A stretch of DNA of 64,000 nt. Source: a virus. The notes beneath the pieces were generated by a model. That model did no database searches. It was not told the origin of the DNA and saw only the letters and a program-made list of their open reading frames with translations. The stretch's first letter is position 1, and every line of letters starts with the position of its first letter. The stretch is from the IMG/VR virus record IMGVR_UViG_3300005529_000003, positions 1 to 64,000 of that record; one strand, 5' to 3'. Made by a program: the position numbers and the translations under genes. Below are positions 1,187-46,914 of this stretch, piece by piece.

Positions 1187-1480
1187 GTGTCTACTTCTAC
1201 TTCTACGACGACTCGTGCATCTCGCGCCTCGAAGGTCAACACCACCCAGGCCGCGGAGATGCTCGGCGTCCAGACTCGCACCTTCAAGCGGATCTGCGAG
1301 CGCGAGGGCATCACCCCCATCGCCTACGAGGGCGGTGCAATCTTCTACAAGCGGTCTGATGTCAACCGGCTGATCCGCCTGCGTGCGAAGGCTGCAAGAA
1401 CCGCCCGCCCCGCTCGCTCGACCGCGAATACGAACAACTCGACGCCGCATCCCTTCCATGCTACTCCGTCGATGTTCTGA
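1187..1480 (+). CDS. HTH DNA-binding protein (MerR/excisionase-like)
   Basis: NTTQAAEMLGVQTRTFKR...FYKRSDV pattern. Confidence 0.7.
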   Translation: MSTSTSTTTRASRASKVNTTQAAEMLGVQTRTFKRICEREGITPIAYEGGAIFYKRSDVNRLIRLRAKAARTARPARSTANTNNSTPHPFHATPSMF

Positions 1481-1497
1481 GATTGACGAAGTTCGTT

Positions 1498-1619
1498 CCC
1501 GAGAACAGGTTCGCACAGCGTAATTCGCGTACAAGTTTCCATCCGCGACTAAACGCAAGCTCTAAGAAGTCGTCGAAGGCCCGGAGCGCTTTCAGAGGTT
1601 GATTCACCTCTTCTCGGCA
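1498..1619 (+). ncRNA. Degenerate expanded tRNA-like element
   Basis: CCGAGA/TCTCGG acceptor-like stem, AGAGG-TTGATTCA-CCTCT T-like arm, GCGACT/AGTCGT and GAAGGC/GCTTTC stems. Confidence 0.4.
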
Positions 1620-1636
1620 CGATACACACGATTTTT

Positions 1637-1693
1637 AGAACGCCAACAGCAACTTCTTAAAACAATCTCCAATGTTGTGCCCACGGCGTTCTG
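1637..1693 (+). ncRNA. ACAGCA-motif small RNA (distal copy)
   Basis: AGAACGCC-AACAGCAAC...GGCGTTCT-G, the same architecture as the copies at 29.6-30.8 kb. Confidence 0.7.
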
Positions 1694-1872
1694 TTGTTCT
1701 TTTAGTCGTCAACAGCTTCACGGCGGTTGATAAGATGTCGCAAGAAACAGGAGATGAAAAGATTGTGACATTGAGGTGAGTCACCATTAACCACAACTGC
1801 TCCGTTCGTTCATTCGACGAGGCACTCCTGGACGACTAAACTCATCCCCTCCGTTGCTTTGGCGGCGGAGTA

Positions 1873-2077
1873 GACGTCTGCGGCGTGGACAGCGTAGCGA
1901 GAAGTTCTGACCTTCTCGAATGGTACACGCGGTAGTGTAGTTGGGCTAATTGATCGCAGGGTCATCAAGCAGTCCTGGGACTCTCATGTCGAGCTTGAAT
2001 CTGACTACTTGCCAAAACAACAACACAAGAACTATGTTCATGAACTTGTGAGTCGGTGCAATTCCGATCGGACGTCT
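1873..2077 (+). ncRNA. About 205-nt tRNA-like RNA with expanded D, anticodon and variable arms
   Basis: GACGTCT/GGACGTC 7-bp stem, GCGTG/CACGC D stem, GTCGG-TGCAATT-CCGAT T arm, CACAAG/CTTGTG arm. Confidence 0.65.
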
Positions 2078-2086
2078 TTTACTTAC

Positions 2087-2238
2087 GCGGGTATAGCTCA
2101 GTTGGTTAGAGCGCGTGACTGATAATCACGAGGTCGGGCGCTGATCCCATAACGGAATTGATCACCTGTTATGAATCTAGGCGGCTACTATGAGGCATAT
2201 GACTCACAAGTAGATTGGTTCGACTCCCCCTACCCGCT
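2087..2238 (+). tRNA. tRNA-Ile(GAT) with a 78-nt insertion in the T stem
   Basis: GCGGGTA/TACCCGC acceptor, canonical D arm, CGTGA-CTGATAA-TCACG, GGG[2139-2216]GG-TTCGACT-CCCCC. Confidence 0.85.
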
Positions 2239-2245
2239 TTAAGAG

Positions 2246-2432
2246 TTTGGTGTGCGAAACGGAAAACGTAAACGTACCGACTTTCATTTTCATTCGTGTT
2301 TCTCGTCGAGCCCAAAGGATCGTGACACGGCCGATCACGACGAGAAACGAATACGAACGAACATGTTAACCCCGGAGCGGCCTAGAAGTCGGGAAGTATC
2401 GCCGCTTGAAGGTTCAACTCCTTCCACCAAAC
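2246..2432 (+). tRNA. tRNA-Leu(TAG)-like gene with a 99-nt insertion in the anticodon loop
   Basis: TTTGGTG/CACCAAA acceptor, GAAGG-TTCAACT-CCTTC T arm, CCGAC-TT[2284-2382]TAG-AA-GTCGG, long variable arm. Confidence 0.65.
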
Positions 2433-2469
2433 TCTTTTCTTTCTCTTGTTCTCTATTGCGAAAGACCTA

Positions 2470-2649
2470 ATGAAAAGTCTCCTTTCCTTCCTTGGTGGCA
2501 AGAAGGCATATATCGGGGCTGTTGGCCTCGCCCTCGTTGCCCTCTTCCAGTACCTCAACGGCGATATGATGATCGCCTCGACGACGCTCTCCCAGGCAAT
2601 CAGTCTTGCTGGGCTGCGCCACGAGTTGCAGAAGACAACGTCAGCGTGA
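2470..2649 (+). CDS. Small membrane protein, holin-like
   Basis: GKKAYI followed by two hydrophobic segments and a GLRH tail; 59 aa. Confidence 0.5.
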   Translation: MKSLLSFLGGKKAYIGAVGLALVALFQYLNGDMMIASTTLSQAISLAGLRHELQKTTSA

Positions 2650-2772
2650 GTCTTTGATTCACTCACGCCGACGCGAGAGTCGCGTGGCTGCGGTCGAGTG
2701 GTCCACACCTCCTCCCACGACGCCGCATAGAAGCAGATCTGAGTGTGAATCTCAAGAGCGCGACTTCTCGAT

Positions 2773-3000
2773 TTACTTTCTGTAACCTTTTCCGTCCACA
2801 TCGAGGTTGCGCTTTGGCTGCTTGTTGGTAATCTGAATATGCAGGGTGACATCTCCGACTGCGTGTGTTAAGCCCCAGTCGTCTTTCAACAAAGCAAGCA
2901 ACTCCTTGCAGAAGTCCTCTGGTGTGAACTCTCCGAGAAGATCGTAAGCGGCGTCAGAACCGCCGACCTCGTCCTCGACCCACGCTTCCACTTCAATCAC
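2773..3000 (-). CDS. Hypothetical protein (probable GTG start near 3000)
   Basis: Fills the gap between genes, with an AGGAG upstream on the minus strand. Confidence 0.4.
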   Translation of the reverse strand: MIEVEAWVEDEVGGSDAAYDLLGEFTPEDFCKELLALLKDDWGLTHAVGDVTLHIQITNKQPKRNLDVDGKGYRK

Positions 3001-9416: not shown

Positions 9417-9727
9417 AGAAGTTTTTCGCGGGCGTTTTTATTTCTTCGCTCGTCTGGTTCTCCTTGATGTGTTTCTATCATCTGCCGATGGGTTTCTACC
9501 CACCCCAACAGAAGTTGCACAAACAAGAAATGCGGATGTTCGTCGGTTTCGCGCCTGAGTTAGCACACCCTGCCGAGACGTTCTCGTCTGGGTTCGCAGA
9601 CCGTAAAGGGAACTTCTCTGTCTACTCTTTCAAACACAAACGCCACTACGAGGAATTCGTGAACGGTGTTCGTGAATACTCCAACTTGCTTTACCAGTCG
9701 ATGAACTTCTTCGACGGGAAAGACTAA
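9398..9727 (+). CDS. Hypothetical membrane-anchored protein
   Basis: N-terminal hydrophobic helix. Confidence 0.5.
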   Translation: MEFNYMKKFFAGVFISSLVWFSLMCFYHLPMGFYPPQQKLHKQEMRMFVGFAPELAHPAETFSSGFADRKGNFSVYSFKHKRHYEEFVNGVREYSNLLYQSMNFFDGKD

Positions 9728-27595: not shown

Positions 27596-29257
27596 TTAAA
27601 ACGGGAATTCGACTTCCTGCTTCTTCGCCTTCTCTGTAAAGCGGAGCAGCTTGAAGATCGGCTGACTTAAGAAGTTCATCATGCCGTCGAGCGGCGTCTG
27701 ATCCTTCTTCTCCTGCTGAGTCTTCGTCTCCTCTCCTCGGAGTAGCCCCTTGAGGATCGAGGGATCGAAGCCGCTGACGAGGAAGCAGCCCTTGTCCGTC
27801 GCGAGGCACGGAAAGTCGGTCGTCTTCGCCCCGTTGACGTGCCACCAGATGATCCGCATCCCAGGCAGACCGCAAGCGGCGAGCTTTTGTCTCGCTTCTT
27901 CGTAGTTCGTCTGAGCGTTGTGATACGATCTTGCCGGCGTGCTGGCGGGGTTGAACTGCATGTCACTGACGACGAGTAGCGTTGACGGAAACGCCTCAAT
28001 AGGAGCCGAGGGGTTCTTGGCCCTTACACGGCACACGGCGTCGATCAGCGATTGGAAGTTCGTACTCCCCATTGCAGTCGGCAGTGACTTGATTTGCCTG
28101 AGCCGCTGCGTGAACGTCCCTGCGAGCTTCACGACCGTCGAGGTGTCGCTGAACATCGCTACGGCGTCCTTGCAGATCCCCGTGTTCAGCATCGAGAAGG
28201 CCACCCCGAGCGACAGGCAGACGTCGATCGGCCTGACCCCCTTGATCAGCTCACACCATCCCATCGATGCGGACGTGTCGAGGCCCACCAGGACGTCTCC
28301 GAGGCAGTGACCCTTGAGCGACTCCAGGCACGTCTCCCACTGCTTGTCGTAGAGCATGTTCTGAATCATGTTCTCCGAACGCTCTGCGGCCCTGCAAAGC
28401 TCGTACGGCTGACCTGTGAACTTCACTCTCCGCTGCTTCTCGAGCCACACACCGAAATCCTCGAACCTTCCGTGGCGCTCGATCCACGACTTCTTGTCTT
28501 GCTTCCCCTTCTGCGAGATCGCGTTCATCAACGCCTTGCCGGGGATCTTGGAGAAGTCGATAAGGTCCCATTTCTTCTGCTGCATCATTCGCTGCCAGAT
28601 GTGAGCCGGGCCAGCGGACTTCAGCTTGCGGTAGTCCTTCTCAGAGAAGCCACAGAAGGCGCAGAGGTCTTTCGCAAAGCCGATTCTCGCCTTGTCTCGC
28701 TCGCTCCTGGCCTTCTTGAACGACCGCATCGTGGGTAGATACTTCAGCAGCAGGGCTTCGTCCAGTGAAACGGCGACCAGGGAAGTCAGCAGCGTTCGGT
28801 TGACCGCAGTCAGGAGAGGCGGCTGGAGGAGGTCTTTCCACGACCCAAACACGGGAACGAGGTCGATGTTGTGTCGCAGCAGCTCGGCGTCGTTGGCGGC
28901 GAGCCATACGAGGCACTTGTAGAACTCGTCACGCCGGCCCATTCCCGTAGCGACTTCTTCGGGGCAGGTTGGGGGTTCGATTCCCTCCGGTCTGTTCGGC
29001 TTCCTCGTGATCAGTCGGAGCCCGAAGATCACCTTCAGGGCAGTCTCCCGATCGTCCTGGAAGATCGCTTCCATGTCCTTGTCTACGGCGGCTTGAGAGC
29101 GGCCGTTGTAAGTTCCACACTTTGAGAAGTATTCGAGACATCGAGCGTACTTCTCGTTGACGCCGCCGACTGCACTGTTTGAAACGGCACCGTTCCATGT
29201 CATCCCGTCCTTCCTTGTGGCGTTCTCATCTTTCAGATCGTTCATGAAGTAACTCAC
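27596..29257 (-). CDS. DUF2828-family Ro60/TROVE-like protein with vWA domain
   Basis: TWNGA, GMGRRDEF, FGSWKDL, IDFSKIPGKA; MIDAS residues LDTSASM, STNFQ, VSDMQF; IIWWHV; LVSGFDP. Confidence 0.8.
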   Translation of the reverse strand: MSYFMNDLKDENATRKDGMTWNGAVSNSAVGGVNEKYARCLEYFSKCGTYNGRSQAAVDKDMEAIFQDDRETALKVIFGLRLITRKPNRPEGIEPPTCPEEVATGMGRRDEFYKCLVWLAANDAELLRHNIDLVPVFGSWKDLLQPPLLTAVNRTLLTSLVAVSLDEALLLKYLPTMRSFKKARSERDKARIGFAKDLCAFCGFSEKDYRKLKSAGPAHIWQRMMQQKKWDLIDFSKIPGKALMNAISQKGKQDKKSWIERHGRFEDFGVWLEKQRRVKFTGQPYELCRAAERSENMIQNMLYDKQWETCLESLKGHCLGDVLVGLDTSASMGWCELIKGVRPIDVCLSLGVAFSMLNTGICKDAVAMFSDTSTVVKLAGTFTQRLRQIKSLPTAMGSTNFQSLIDAVCRVRAKNPSAPIEAFPSTLLVVSDMQFNPASTPARSYHNAQTNYEEARQKLAACGLPGMRIIWWHVNGAKTTDFPCLATDKGCFLVSGFDPSILKGLLRGEETKTQQEKKDQTPLDGMMNFLSQPIFKLLRFTEKAKKQEVEFPF

Positions 29258-29600: not shown

Positions 29601-29648
29601 CAGAACGCTTAACCGATTGCATTGGTAAGAAGTTGCTGTGAGCGTTCT
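29601..29648 (-). ncRNA. ACAGCA-motif small RNA
   Basis: AGAACGCT-CACAGCAAC...AGCGTTCT-G. Confidence 0.75.
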
Positions 29649-29883: not shown

Positions 29884-30081
29884 TCAACACTGGTCGTTGA
29901 CTGCTGGTACTGGCTTTTCGATTTTCGTGTCTCGGTCGAGGAGTTCGTCCCGAACGATGTTGACATCCGGAGGAGCCTCAATCCCGATGCGGATTCGATT
30001 TCCTCGGACTTCGAGAATCTTCACCTTTATGTCTCCATCAATGATCAACGATTCGCCGACCTTGCGAGAGAGTACGAGCAT
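29884..30081 (-). CDS. csrA: Carbon storage regulator CsrA/RsmA
   Basis: MLVLSRKVGESLII...IRIGIEAPPDVNIVRDEL. Confidence 0.92.
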   Translation of the reverse strand: MLVLSRKVGESLIIDGDIKVKILEVRGNRIRIGIEAPPDVNIVRDELLDRDTKIEKPVPAVNDQC

Positions 30082-30316: not shown

Positions 30317-30545
30317 CGAAACGCCGTAGGGTTCTTTTGCTTTACCGTTAAGCTACTCCCCCTGAGTACCGCTACGGTAAATACCGTATAACGCCCGCGG
30401 CCGGCGACTCGATTAAAACTTCGACTGTTAAACGATTCGCGACTCGTAACCGTCTGCGTAGACTATCGAGCGTGATCTAGAGGGGGAGGCGGGAGTCGAA
30501 CCCGCATCAAAAGATTAATGTAAGTAAGTTTGCTGTCGGCGTTTC
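30317..30545 (-). ncRNA. YrlA-like permuted tRNA-mimic RNA with a 117-nt acceptor-loop insert
   Basis: Stem+GACAGCAA, then T arm GCGGG-TTCGACT-CCCGC, CTCCCCCT...AGGGGGAG, D arm TAGCTTAACGGTAAAGC, closing stem. Confidence 0.8.
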
Positions 30546-30563
30546 TTGTTATGTGCAAGAAAA

Positions 30564-30675
30564 CGAAACACCGTCTTTTCATCTTTCGCGTCTACCAGTT
30601 CCGCCACTCAAAAGCTTTCGCTGTTGAGGTGGGACTCGAACCCACATGATAAAGAGTTAATGCTGTTGGTGTTTC
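30564..30675 (-). ncRNA. YrlA-like permuted tRNA-mimic RNA
   Basis: Stem+AACAGCA, T arm GTGGG-TTCGAGT-CCCAC, GAAA-capped acceptor, D arm TGGCGGAACTGGTAGACGC, closing stem. Confidence 0.85.
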
Positions 30676-30685
30676 TGAGAAGGTT

Positions 30686-30781: not shown

Positions 30782-30831
30782 CGGAACGCTTGACCTTTGG
30801 TGATGGTGGTTGAGGTTGCTGTGAGCGTTCC
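30782..30831 (-). ncRNA. ACAGCA-motif small RNA
   Basis: GGAACGCT-CACAGCAAC...AGCGTTCC-G. Confidence 0.75.
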
Positions 30832-45452: not shown

Positions 45453-46700
45453 ATGACACACCACAAGAAGAAAAAGAAGCGTCGTGGAAGGGGCGAAGGA
45501 TCGATCTACAAGAGGGGCGACGGCCGGTGGGTCGCGATACTCGCTTCAGGGGAGGTTGACATTACAACGGGGAGGAAGAAGCGGAAGTACATCTACGCTG
45601 AGTCGAAGACAGAGGTCCTTCATCTTCTGGAAGATCACAAGGCGAAGTTAAAGGCGAAGCGTGTCGAGTCTCATGATAAGCGACTCCTTTGTGATTACCT
45701 CGACTCCTGGTTGGAGACGAAGAAACTTTCTGTAGAGAAACGGACACAGGAGTCGTACGAGTCGCATGTCCGCGTCCACATCAAGCCGAATCTCGGATCG
45801 ATCAAGCTGCAAGATCTGACTTCGCAGAACGTTCAGGACTTCTACTCAAAGCTCGTCAAGGATGGTGTCTCCTCGACGCAGGCGCGCAAGGTCGGGACGA
45901 CACTTGGAGTCGCCCTGGCGGACGCGGTGAGGGCCCGACATCTGCTAGTCAATCCCTCTGTCGGCATTCGCAAGCCCAAGAAGGTCTTCAAGGAGAGTGA
46001 AGTATGGGACGAGGAGCAGTTGCGTTCTTTTCTCGCCGCCGCAAAACAAGACGAACGGCACTGGCCTTTCTACTTGACGATGCTCGACAGTGGACTACGC
46101 CCCGGTGAGCTTTGGGCATTGCGTTGGTCCGACGTGAACCTCGAGTTGGGAATACTGACGATCCGCAGGGCGATTGAAGGCGGATTAGGACCAGTCGGCG
46201 TCAAGGCTCCCAAGACGTCAAAAGGTCGGCGAAATGTCGTTCTATCTCCGCCGACAGTTGCAGTCCTTCGTGAACTGAGAGAGAAACGGCTGTTAGCAGG
46301 CGCGAAGGAAACGGACCTCATCTTCTGCAACATCCGCGGCGGCTTCATGAGGTTCTCGAACTTCTATCGCGATTCATACAACCCCCTTCTGGAACGAGCG
46401 AACCTTCCTCACAAGCCGCTCTACACCCTCCGACACACATCCGCCACGCTCTTGCTCCTCCTGGGAGAGCCAGCGAAAATTGTCTCAGAGCGCCTTGGGC
46501 ACTCGACAACGAGGCTCACACTTGATACTTATAGTCATGTCCTCCCGTCCATGCAAAAGACGACAGCGGACAGGCTTGGCGGCCTGCTCGAGGGACTCAT
46601 GGCGAAGAAAGATTTGAAACCTTCAGAGGCCGACGGGGTTAATACTCGGGTTGTAGATGGCGGTCCCGGAGGCTGCAACTCAGCAGATGGACAAACGTAA
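45453..46700 (+). CDS. int: Tyrosine integrase
   Basis: RGRGEGSIY arm domain, SGLRPGEL, PKT, TLRHTSAT, LGHS, DTYSHV. Confidence 0.95.
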   Translation: MTHHKKKKKRRGRGEGSIYKRGDGRWVAILASGEVDITTGRKKRKYIYAESKTEVLHLLEDHKAKLKAKRVESHDKRLLCDYLDSWLETKKLSVEKRTQESYESHVRVHIKPNLGSIKLQDLTSQNVQDFYSKLVKDGVSSTQARKVGTTLGVALADAVRARHLLVNPSVGIRKPKKVFKESEVWDEEQLRSFLAAAKQDERHWPFYLTMLDSGLRPGELWALRWSDVNLELGILTIRRAIEGGLGPVGVKAPKTSKGRRNVVLSPPTVAVLRELREKRLLAGAKETDLIFCNIRGGFMRFSNFYRDSYNPLLERANLPHKPLYTLRHTSATLLLLLGEPAKIVSERLGHSTTRLTLDTYSHVLPSMQKTTADRLGGLLEGLMAKKDLKPSEADGVNTRVVDGGPGGCNSADGQT

Positions 46701-46727: not shown

Positions 46728-46914
46728 GACTTACAGGCGCAGAAGGCGTAGCTCAGCTGGTAGAGCAACGGACTTTTAATCCCACCAACAACTCCCGCAC
46801 TGACGACCTCCGATCGTCGCAAACCCTTCCGTTTTCCCTCATTTACAGCGATTTTGCTGGCATTTTCGATAGCGGCGGCTGCCACGATAAACGCCCCCTG
46901 TCCGACTTACAGGC
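46728..46914 (+). repeat. GACTTACAGGC direct repeats flanking the att core (candidate arm sites)
   Basis: Exact copies at 46728-46738 and 46904-46914. Confidence 0.55.
46742..46782 (+). other. attP core candidate: 5' half of tRNA-Lys(TTT)
   Basis: GAAGGCG-TA-GCTCAGCTGGTAGAGC-A-ACGGA-CTTTTAA-TCC, then no T arm; located between int and xis. Confidence 0.8.

Follow-up and report, generated by a model that had tools for sequence, protein, structure and literature searches.

A phage tRNA-Ile(GAU) gene carrying a structured 78-nt insert in its T stem, within an array of tRNA-like units: a possible tRNA-scaffolded non-coding RNA

The locus and the phage that carries it

The DNA analysed in this work (hereafter the window, 64,000 nt) is the first 64 kb of IMGVR_UViG_3300005529_000003, a complete virus record of 94,830 bp whose ends repeat over 110 bp. 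The window contains a stretch without any credible ORF (1480-2440, ~960 nt), which is flanked on one side by a small HTH gene (1187-1480, a weak HTH_17 match) and on the other by a 59-codon ORF (2472-2651) without a Pfam match, whose product looks hydrophobic. This stretch houses an interrupted tRNA-Ile(GAU) gene on the plus strand (2087-2238), called unit B in the present work, together with other tRNA-like units (A, C and Z) that are described below.

A family A DNA polymerase of ~1120 aa spans the record ends (92466-94830, continuing into positions 1-1138 of the window), its relatives being proteins of ~770 aa devoid of intein. The phage polymerase carries an intein of ~330 aa with a LAGLIDADG domain near the intein C terminus. 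Other genes present in the window or in the rest of the genome code for a class II ribonucleotide reductase, MazG, thymidylate synthase, PhoH, SSB, terminase, portal, and capsid proteins. The nucleotide-metabolism set is composed of MazG, a dATP/dGTP diphosphohydrolase N-terminal domain, thymidylate synthase, a PAPS-reductase-like protein, and the class II ribonucleotide reductase, a combination that hints at modified DNA bases.

A tyrosine integrase gene (45453-46700) is immediately followed by a tRNA-Lys(UUU) fragment that runs from the 5' end to the anticodon loop (46742-46782; Rfam tRNA, 25.8 bits). This partial tRNA gene is probably the attP site. An exact 38-mer of it is present in 24 genomes, 21 of which belong to the Planctomycetota, mostly to the Planctomycetaceae and Gemmataceae. 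Because the matches of this attP-like 38-mer fall mostly in that phylum, the host is likely to be a Planctomycetota bacterium. The virus is a temperate soil phage of ~95 kb, and it lacks RNA-repair genes.

Anatomy of the tRNA-Ile(GAU) body

The Rfam model RF00005 matches positions 2087-2238 of the plus strand over model positions 1-71 with 45.1 bits (gathering cut-off, 29 bits), and the sole gap of the alignment falls inside the T arm. ARAGORN calls no tRNA in the intact window; when positions 2139-2216 are deleted, it calls a tRNA-Ile(gat) of 74 nt. As encoded, 2087-2238 is not a contiguous cloverleaf of ~73-90 nt with an unbroken T arm.

According to the Rfam alignment and to ARAGORN after the deletion, the gene consists of two parts. 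The 5' part (2087..2138, tRNA positions 1-51) comprises the acceptor 5' strand, the D arm, the anticodon arm (anticodon GAT at 2121-2123), the variable loop, and the first three G of the T stem. The 3' part (2217..2238, tRNA positions 52-73) provides the last two T-stem G, the loop TTCGACT, the strand CCCCC, the acceptor strand TACCCGC, and the discriminator T. In the insert-free molecule the acceptor, D and anticodon stems have 7, 4 and 5 bp, respectively, the anticodon loop is CTGATAA, the variable loop AGGTC, the T stem GGGGG/CCCCC, and the T loop TTCGACT. The bases involved in tertiary contacts (U8, A14, G15-C48, G18 G19, G26, G46, and U54-A58) are complete by direct reading.

An earlier note on this DNA had described a perfect tRNA-Ile(GAU) split in the T stem by 78 nt, whose removal restores a cloverleaf with a GGGGG/CCCCC T stem. 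The split gene, its exact coordinates and the restored cloverleaf are borne out by the Rfam span and by ARAGORN. The word perfect holds for the body of the molecule, that is, for all stems and tertiary bases; it does not hold for the discriminator, which is U73 in the phage gene and A73 in three planctomycete tRNA-Ile(GAU) genes. Moreover, CCA is not encoded at the 3' end. As read from these genes, the presence of U73 instead of A73 argues against ordinary charging.

Comparison with the same three planctomycete genes also indicates how old the phage gene could be. The second acceptor pair, four of the five anticodon-stem pairs and all five T-stem pairs differ, and all the differing pairs stay complementary in the phage tRNA, those of the T stem across the insert included. 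Since so many pairs differ from those of the host and are nevertheless complementary, the phage tRNA-Ile gene is old and diverged, a long-standing phage tRNA and not a recent capture.

Position, fold and verification of the insert

The insert (2139..2216, 78 nt, plus strand) lies between tRNA positions 51 and 52 and splits the 5' strand of the T stem. Its boundaries, as defined by the ARAGORN deletion, are fixed and cannot slide, because the flanking bases differ.

When the cloverleaf is constrained, two domains are predicted. Domain 1 (2139..2183; pair probabilities 0.55-1.0) consists of a closing helix, CGCU(GAU)/(AUC)..GGCG, around an 8-bp hairpin (2148-2155/2166-2173) with the 10-nt loop AAUUGAUCAC. 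Domain 2 (2185..2213; pair probabilities 0.9-1.0) is a hairpin, CUACU.UGAG / CUCA..AGUAG, with the 8-nt loop GCAUAUGA. The insert finishes with a single-stranded AUU (2214-2216). Both hairpins, which are predicted with pair probabilities of 0.9-1.0, are those named previously from the sequence, to which the present folding adds the short helix that closes the first one. The 5' end of the insert pairs internally (2139-2142 with 2180-2183), so that the two insert ends do not pair together. The insert contains neither a T loop nor a CCA-like 3' end and is not tRNA-shaped.

By itself the insert folds with -21.4 kcal/mol (z = -2.6), a value reached by only 2% of dinucleotide shuffles. The whole unit is less striking: the z value of the 152 nt is -1.5, and the cloverleaf with the folded insert reaches -44.8 kcal/mol, 4.3 kcal/mol above the unconstrained minimum of -49.1 kcal/mol, in which the first four insert bases pair with the 3' side of the D stem.

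The motif YUGAUC occurs twice in the insert (2141-2146 and 2158-2163), as an echo of the anticodon loop CUGAUAA (2119-2125), and there are five Ile codon triplets (three AUC and two AUU); these patterns were noticed post hoc and are not significant by themselves. A 23-codon ORF overlapping the insert (2171-2242) was dismissed as a chance occurrence, since it is not preceded by a ribosome-binding site.

The locus comes from a single metagenome-derived record, a fact that would be compatible with an assembly or chimera artefact. Such an origin is extremely improbable: when the source run was assembled independently by Logan, the site fell in a 54-kb contig of depth ~17 without a single difference over 1400-3000, and the record covers a complete genome of 94.8 kb with its 110-bp terminal repeat. 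The insert-free joined form is absent from the Logan assembly.

The neighbouring units form a tandem array

Unit B has neighbours of related design 9 nt upstream and 7 nt downstream, a spacing like that within tRNA operons. Unit A (1873..2077, plus strand), located upstream, was recognised by the T-arm/acceptor scan, by the deletion scan and by ARAGORN; it has a closing helix of 7-8 bp and the T arm GTCGG-TGCAATT-CCGAT. It also contains a hairpin of 6-7 bp with an anticodon-like loop, TTCTGAC, from which ~130 nt extend to the T arm, and shows no convincing D arm. In the ARAGORN deletion scan, removal of ~130 nt beside the T arm leaves a poor "tRNA-Gln(CUG)" with an 8-bp acceptor, a hairpin that makes a good anticodon-like arm, and no real D arm. 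Unit C (2246..2432, plus strand; T-arm/acceptor scan), located downstream, is closed by the helix TTTGGTG/CACCAAA, which can be extended to 12 bp, and has the T arm GAAGG-TTCAACT-CCTTC. Its interior of ~150 nt is structured without being a cloverleaf, and no single deletion yields one. A weak fourth unit, Z (1499..1617, plus strand), was found by direct reading and consists of the closing helix CCGAGAA/TTCTCGG next to the hairpin AGAGG..CCTCT.

On both strands of the 94.8 kb, the scan looked for intact T arms that are directly continued by 7 nt able to pair without mismatch with a sequence up to 450 nt upstream. It gives exactly two matches, 1874-2075 and 2246-2431, which are the two flanking neighbours of the tRNA-Ile, against ~0.15 in shuffled genomes. 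The fold z values are -3.4 for unit C, which is far more stable than its shuffles, -1.6 for unit A, where the advantage is mild, and -0.9 for unit Z, which is no better than shuffles. When the interiors or inserts of units A, B, C and Z were compared among themselves and with the Y-like RNA region described below, no significant similarity emerged, and a shared 8-mer (AATTGATC) is within chance.

The locus is, therefore, a tandem array in which tRNA ends are kept around unrelated structured interiors and in which the tRNA-Ile unit alone retains a whole tRNA body. Because no single deletion converts the neighbours into proper tRNAs, the combination of an acceptor/T minihelix and a large interior is used here without splicing.

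The ORF-free stretch also contains a hairpin RNA (1637-1693, plus strand) with an 8-bp terminal stem, AGAACGCC/GGCGTTCT, followed by ACAGCA. This stem-plus-ACAGCA design recurs beside the Ro60-like gene, for instance at 29601-29648 and 30782-30831 on the minus strand.

A Ro60-like gene, a CsrA gene and permuted tRNA mimics

A second region of the window, on the minus strand, contains a gene for a Ro60-like protein (DUF2828/DUF7788 by Pfam; 27596-29257) and a CsrA homologue (29902-30081; Pfam CsrA, 79.7 bits). Adjoining both genes, direct reading reveals two permuted tRNA mimics (~30330-30680, minus strand) of YrlA-like topology, each with a T arm, a D arm and an acceptor helix that is closed. 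One of them shares its T loop, TTCGACT, with the tRNA-Ile unit and encloses a large insert in its acceptor helix. The ACAGCA motif of the RNAs located beside the Ro60-like gene is missing from the 78-nt insert. Structured RNAs encoded so close to a CsrA gene could be partners or sponges of this protein.

Tests for splicing, self-cleavage and mobile DNA

Several types of intervening sequence were considered and rejected. A group I intron would need U at the end of the 5' part, for the U.G pair, and G at the end of the intron, while the phage gene has G2138 and U2216, and 78 nt compare with ~200 or more. A group II intron would start with GUGYG, end with AY and have six domains in more than 400 nt, while the insert starts with CGCUG and ends with AUU. 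An archaeal intron would need a bulge-helix-bulge (BHB), and no 4-bp central helix can be formed at 2138/2216; a script that tested every pair of cut sites for the 3-4-3 arrangement gave alternatives elsewhere at chance level, none of which restores a tRNA. Neither the phage nor the four planctomycete genomes examined contain the tRNA-splicing endonuclease EndA (PF01974), the control being positive in four archaea. An intervening sequence of the RNase III type was rejected as the insert ends form no long duplex.

No ribozyme or intron family, hammerhead, twister, pistol, hatchet and HDV-like included, is matched by Rfam at E <= 10 in 1500-3000, and Pfam scans of ~120 phage ORFs detect neither an RNA ligase nor RtcB nor a recognised polynucleotide kinase. 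RtcB was found in two or three of the four planctomycete genomes tested.

The insert is equally unlike mobile DNA. As an IS or MITE it was rejected because it has no terminal inverted repeats, produces no target-site duplication by direct reading and is present in one copy in the genome. It is not the remnant of an integrated element either, as the tRNA lacks a second copy of its 3' part and is broken within a stem, not within a loop.

The contrast with known self-splicing introns that had been proposed previously is upheld by the size, the junction bases and Rfam; the reading as an intron that it implied is not, since splice signature, ribozyme match, splicing endonuclease (in the phage and in the four host-type genomes) and phage RNA ligase are all missing. 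The earlier note had also argued that simple decay is unlikely, and this opinion gains from the lack of target-site duplication and terminal inverted repeats, from the diverged T-stem pairs that remain complementary, and from the neighbours, which share the same design.

A route of removal outside these classes has to be weighed. Host nucleases, or phage nucleases not recognised as such, might excise the insert, and the two parts could then be re-ligated, the host RtcB being able to seal them, or could stay together as a nicked two-piece tRNA through the pairs of the acceptor and the T stem; either form of tRNA-Ile would decode AUC/AUU. The perfect cloverleaf obtained upon removal and its unique boundaries are what such excision would leave, the five T-stem pairs, all unlike those of the host, are complementary across the insert, and an intron-like element would show neither target-site duplication nor terminal inverted repeats. 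RtcB exists in two or three of four planctomycete genomes, and enigmatic introns other than group I are known in Lak megaphage tRNAs (PMC6784885). However, the junctions allow no BHB and have the wrong bases for group I, 78 nt are far below the sizes of groups I and II, no Rfam ribozyme is found at the mentioned threshold, and the insert ends are unpaired, without T loop or CCA. The lack of EndA in phage and host-type genomes and of ligase, RtcB and recognised polynucleotide kinase in the phage, as well as U73, point in the same direction, and excision would not rescue neighbours A and C, which would be left unexplained. Taken together, excision appears unlikely. The specific proposal that a working phage tRNA arises from this T-stem-interrupted gene, its 78 nt being cut out by enzymes that are not known as bacterial tRNA splicers and its halves being re-sealed or used as two pieces, is decidedly doubtful. 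[quoted passage not shown]

Relatives of the insert and of the phage

Within its own genome the insert matches only itself. Exact and gapped patterns of the insert and its junctions gave no match in IMG/VR; a pattern with the tRNA-Ile 3' part gave five, all of them unrelated intact tRNAs that have the T arm and acceptor in common with it. An anticodon-arm pattern retrieved 15 matches from the JGI metagenomes, all of them intact, unrelated archaeal or bacterial tRNA-Ile genes. BLAST with the insert against 401 planctomycete genomes produced short matches at chance level only. In 13 Gemmataceae genomes the best-scoring Rfam tRNA matches listed were normal tRNAs, a listing of a kind that cannot reveal interrupted ones. 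According to the earlier note, an insert that is unique, in an RNA that is neither spliced nor stable, would contradict its interpretation; in all collections searched the insert is indeed unique. No published report of a T-stem insert in a phage tRNA, or of the 78-nt sequence, was found.

The phage itself is also rather isolated. Relatives of its PAPS reductase in IMG/VR are at most 50% identical, and ARAGORN found a single tRNA, a tRNA-Gln (in L033), at 60 of the 80 PAPS-reductase loci (L004-L063). The highest full-length identity among polymerase relatives in IMG/VR is 38%, two partial matches reaching 41-44% on the best segment; no tRNA was detected at their loci, either by ARAGORN (all 19) or by Rfam (the best 10). 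One planctomycete genome contains a polymerase relative of ~40% identity, probably within a prophage, and the T-arm/acceptor pattern scan, which was the one search run at that locus, returned nothing there. The GenBank phages yielded no close relative. The nearest proteins on ENA and Logan contigs are polymerases with 55% (P0122) and 51% (P0123) identity and a PAPS reductase with 67% (P0002). The sequence occurs in one DNA sequencing run, its probable source, and there is no RNA run among the listed holders.

An unrelated phage contig from IMG/VR (L009) contains two elements, 2236-2345 (plus strand) and 9534-9703 (minus strand), with canonical T arms and 7-bp closing helices. They span 110 and 170 nt, and ARAGORN calls neither of them a tRNA. 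One of them ends in GCCA and resembles the 3' end of a tRNA-Ser or of a tmRNA-like molecule. Over-long tRNA-like RNAs may be commoner in phages.

The isolation of the insert raises the question of whether the gene is simply dead, a recently inactivated phage tRNA-Ile that was killed by a one-off illegitimate insertion of 78 bp, is functionless and has flanks that are not yet decayed. The insert is unique everywhere it was searched for, there is no visible mechanism for its removal, and U73 departs from the host A73. Furthermore, the lack of a tRNA beside the polymerase in those phage relatives that are within reach implies that this tRNA is dispensable in the lineage. However, a random insert would not be expected to fold so well, as only 2% of shuffles do, and there is no duplication, repeat or mobile-element signature. 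The neighbours hold perfect closing helices of 7-12 bp over 150-200 nt around interiors that are not tRNA-like, which indicates selection on the array and not a graveyard, and ~960 nt of junk would be unusual in a compact genome of 95 kb. Inactivation is, on balance, rather improbable.

A possible tRNA-scaffolded non-coding RNA

The reading that we tentatively prefer, which seems quite possible without reaching even chances, is that the 152-nt unit is an unspliced non-coding RNA scaffolded by a tRNA and belongs to a phage operon of such RNAs. The ORF-free stretch 1480-2440 would be transcribed as one precursor, and the units would be cut free at their acceptor-like helices by host RNase P together with either 3' trimming or CCA addition. 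Unit B would persist as an RNA of ~152 nt, with a full tRNA-Ile body and a two-hairpin module displayed from the T-stem side.

The insert site, between positions 51 and 52, would lie on the T-stem face that is contacted by EF-Tu. Because the insert would occupy this face and the discriminator is atypical, unit B is presumably not a decoding tRNA. It would be seen as tRNA-Ile by tRNA-binding enzymes or by tRNA-targeting nucleases, yet would be kept from translation. Its role might then be that of a decoy or sponge for a factor that recognises tRNA-Ile, or that of a Y-RNA-like adaptor bridging a tRNA-binding factor and the partner of the hairpin module.

Different observations are in favour of a scaffold. 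The neighbours of unit B are the two T-arm/closing-helix matches of the genome and have tRNA-operon-like spacing; permuted mimics exist elsewhere in the phage, one of them with a large insert in its acceptor helix; the insert is independently structured (z = -2.6); and splice signature, ribozyme, endonuclease and phage ligase are all absent. Other observations are against it. A canonical anticodon arm, a canonical D arm and a full set of tertiary bases are superfluous for a mere scaffold and fit a tRNA that decodes now or did so recently. The T arm is interrupted in unit B and intact in units A and C. The thermodynamics are modest (z of -1.5 for unit B and -1.6 for unit A, a unit Z that is not significant, and a cloverleaf with insert that lies 4.3 kcal/mol above the minimum). 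Neither homologue nor covariation backs unit B, and a tie to the Ro60-like or CsrA protein would be conjectural.

Considered together, the array, the Ro60-like gene, the CsrA gene and the permuted mimics suggest that the tRNA fold serves planctomycete phages as a general chassis on which non-coding RNAs are built. If unit B were instead spliced or functional in two pieces, it would reveal a tRNA processing route that is undescribed in bacteria.

Comparison with known systems

To our knowledge, interruptions are exceptional in bacterial tRNA genes, and those on record are group I introns that splice themselves out of the anticodon loop. None of these cases matches a complete tRNA body whose T stem has received a structured module. 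Bacterial group I introns are located in the anticodon loops of tRNA-Leu UAA, tRNA-fMet, and the Azoarcus tRNA-Ile CAU (~205 nt). The phage gene shares with them an insert that can be precisely removed from a tRNA gene of the bacterial and phage world, but this insert is too short, lies in the wrong place, has the wrong junction bases and matches no Rfam intron.

Archaeal non-canonical tRNA introns are small, are spliced by proteins at a bulge-helix-bulge and can be found outside the anticodon loop, the T arm included. In contrast, the phage junctions allow no BHB, the host is bacterial, and EndA is present neither in the phage nor in host-type genomes.

The tRNA genes of Lak megaphages contain short "enigmatic" introns that Rfam cannot classify and for which no splicing route is known (Devoto et al. 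2019, PMC6784885). These introns were predicted with eukaryote-type settings, belong to Prevotella phages of 540 kb and are conserved across cohorts, and one of them may encode a tRNA (PMC6784885). The likeness is clear, as in both cases a phage tRNA is interrupted by a short insert with no Rfam class and no known splicing route. However, the insert of unit B is in the T stem, unique and not tRNA-shaped, and the phage that carries it is a 95-kb temperate one without RNA-repair genes.

Phage T4 produces RNAs C and D, small stable RNAs of unassigned role that come from its tRNA gene cluster (PMC3014915). They have in common with unit B the type of origin, a phage tRNA region, although the T4 pair is not described as insert-bearing tRNAs and the likeness is one of description.

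YrlA-type Y RNAs are tRNA mimics bound by Ro60/Rsr and recognised by RNase P, CCA addition, TruB and DusA (Chen et al. 2014, PMC4201824), and YrlA-related sequences have been described in 22 bacteriophages (PMC4201824). YrlA is permuted, lacks an anticodon arm, has the motif GNCGAA(N)G in the stem formed by its ends and is encoded within 4 kb of the Ro60 gene (PMC4201824). Unit B resembles it as a candidate non-coding RNA with a tRNA-like module, in a phage that has a Ro60-like gene and permuted mimics elsewhere. It differs from YrlA in its normal tRNA topology, its full anticodon arm and its location, ~25 kb from the Ro60-like gene and on the opposite strand; its score with the Rfam YrlA model (RF02553) is 15 bits against a cut-off of 69 bits. 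If unit B is stable and unspliced, it would represent a naturally occurring equivalent of the engineered "tRNA scaffold" and might act as a decoy or adaptor in the conflict between phage and host over tRNAs.
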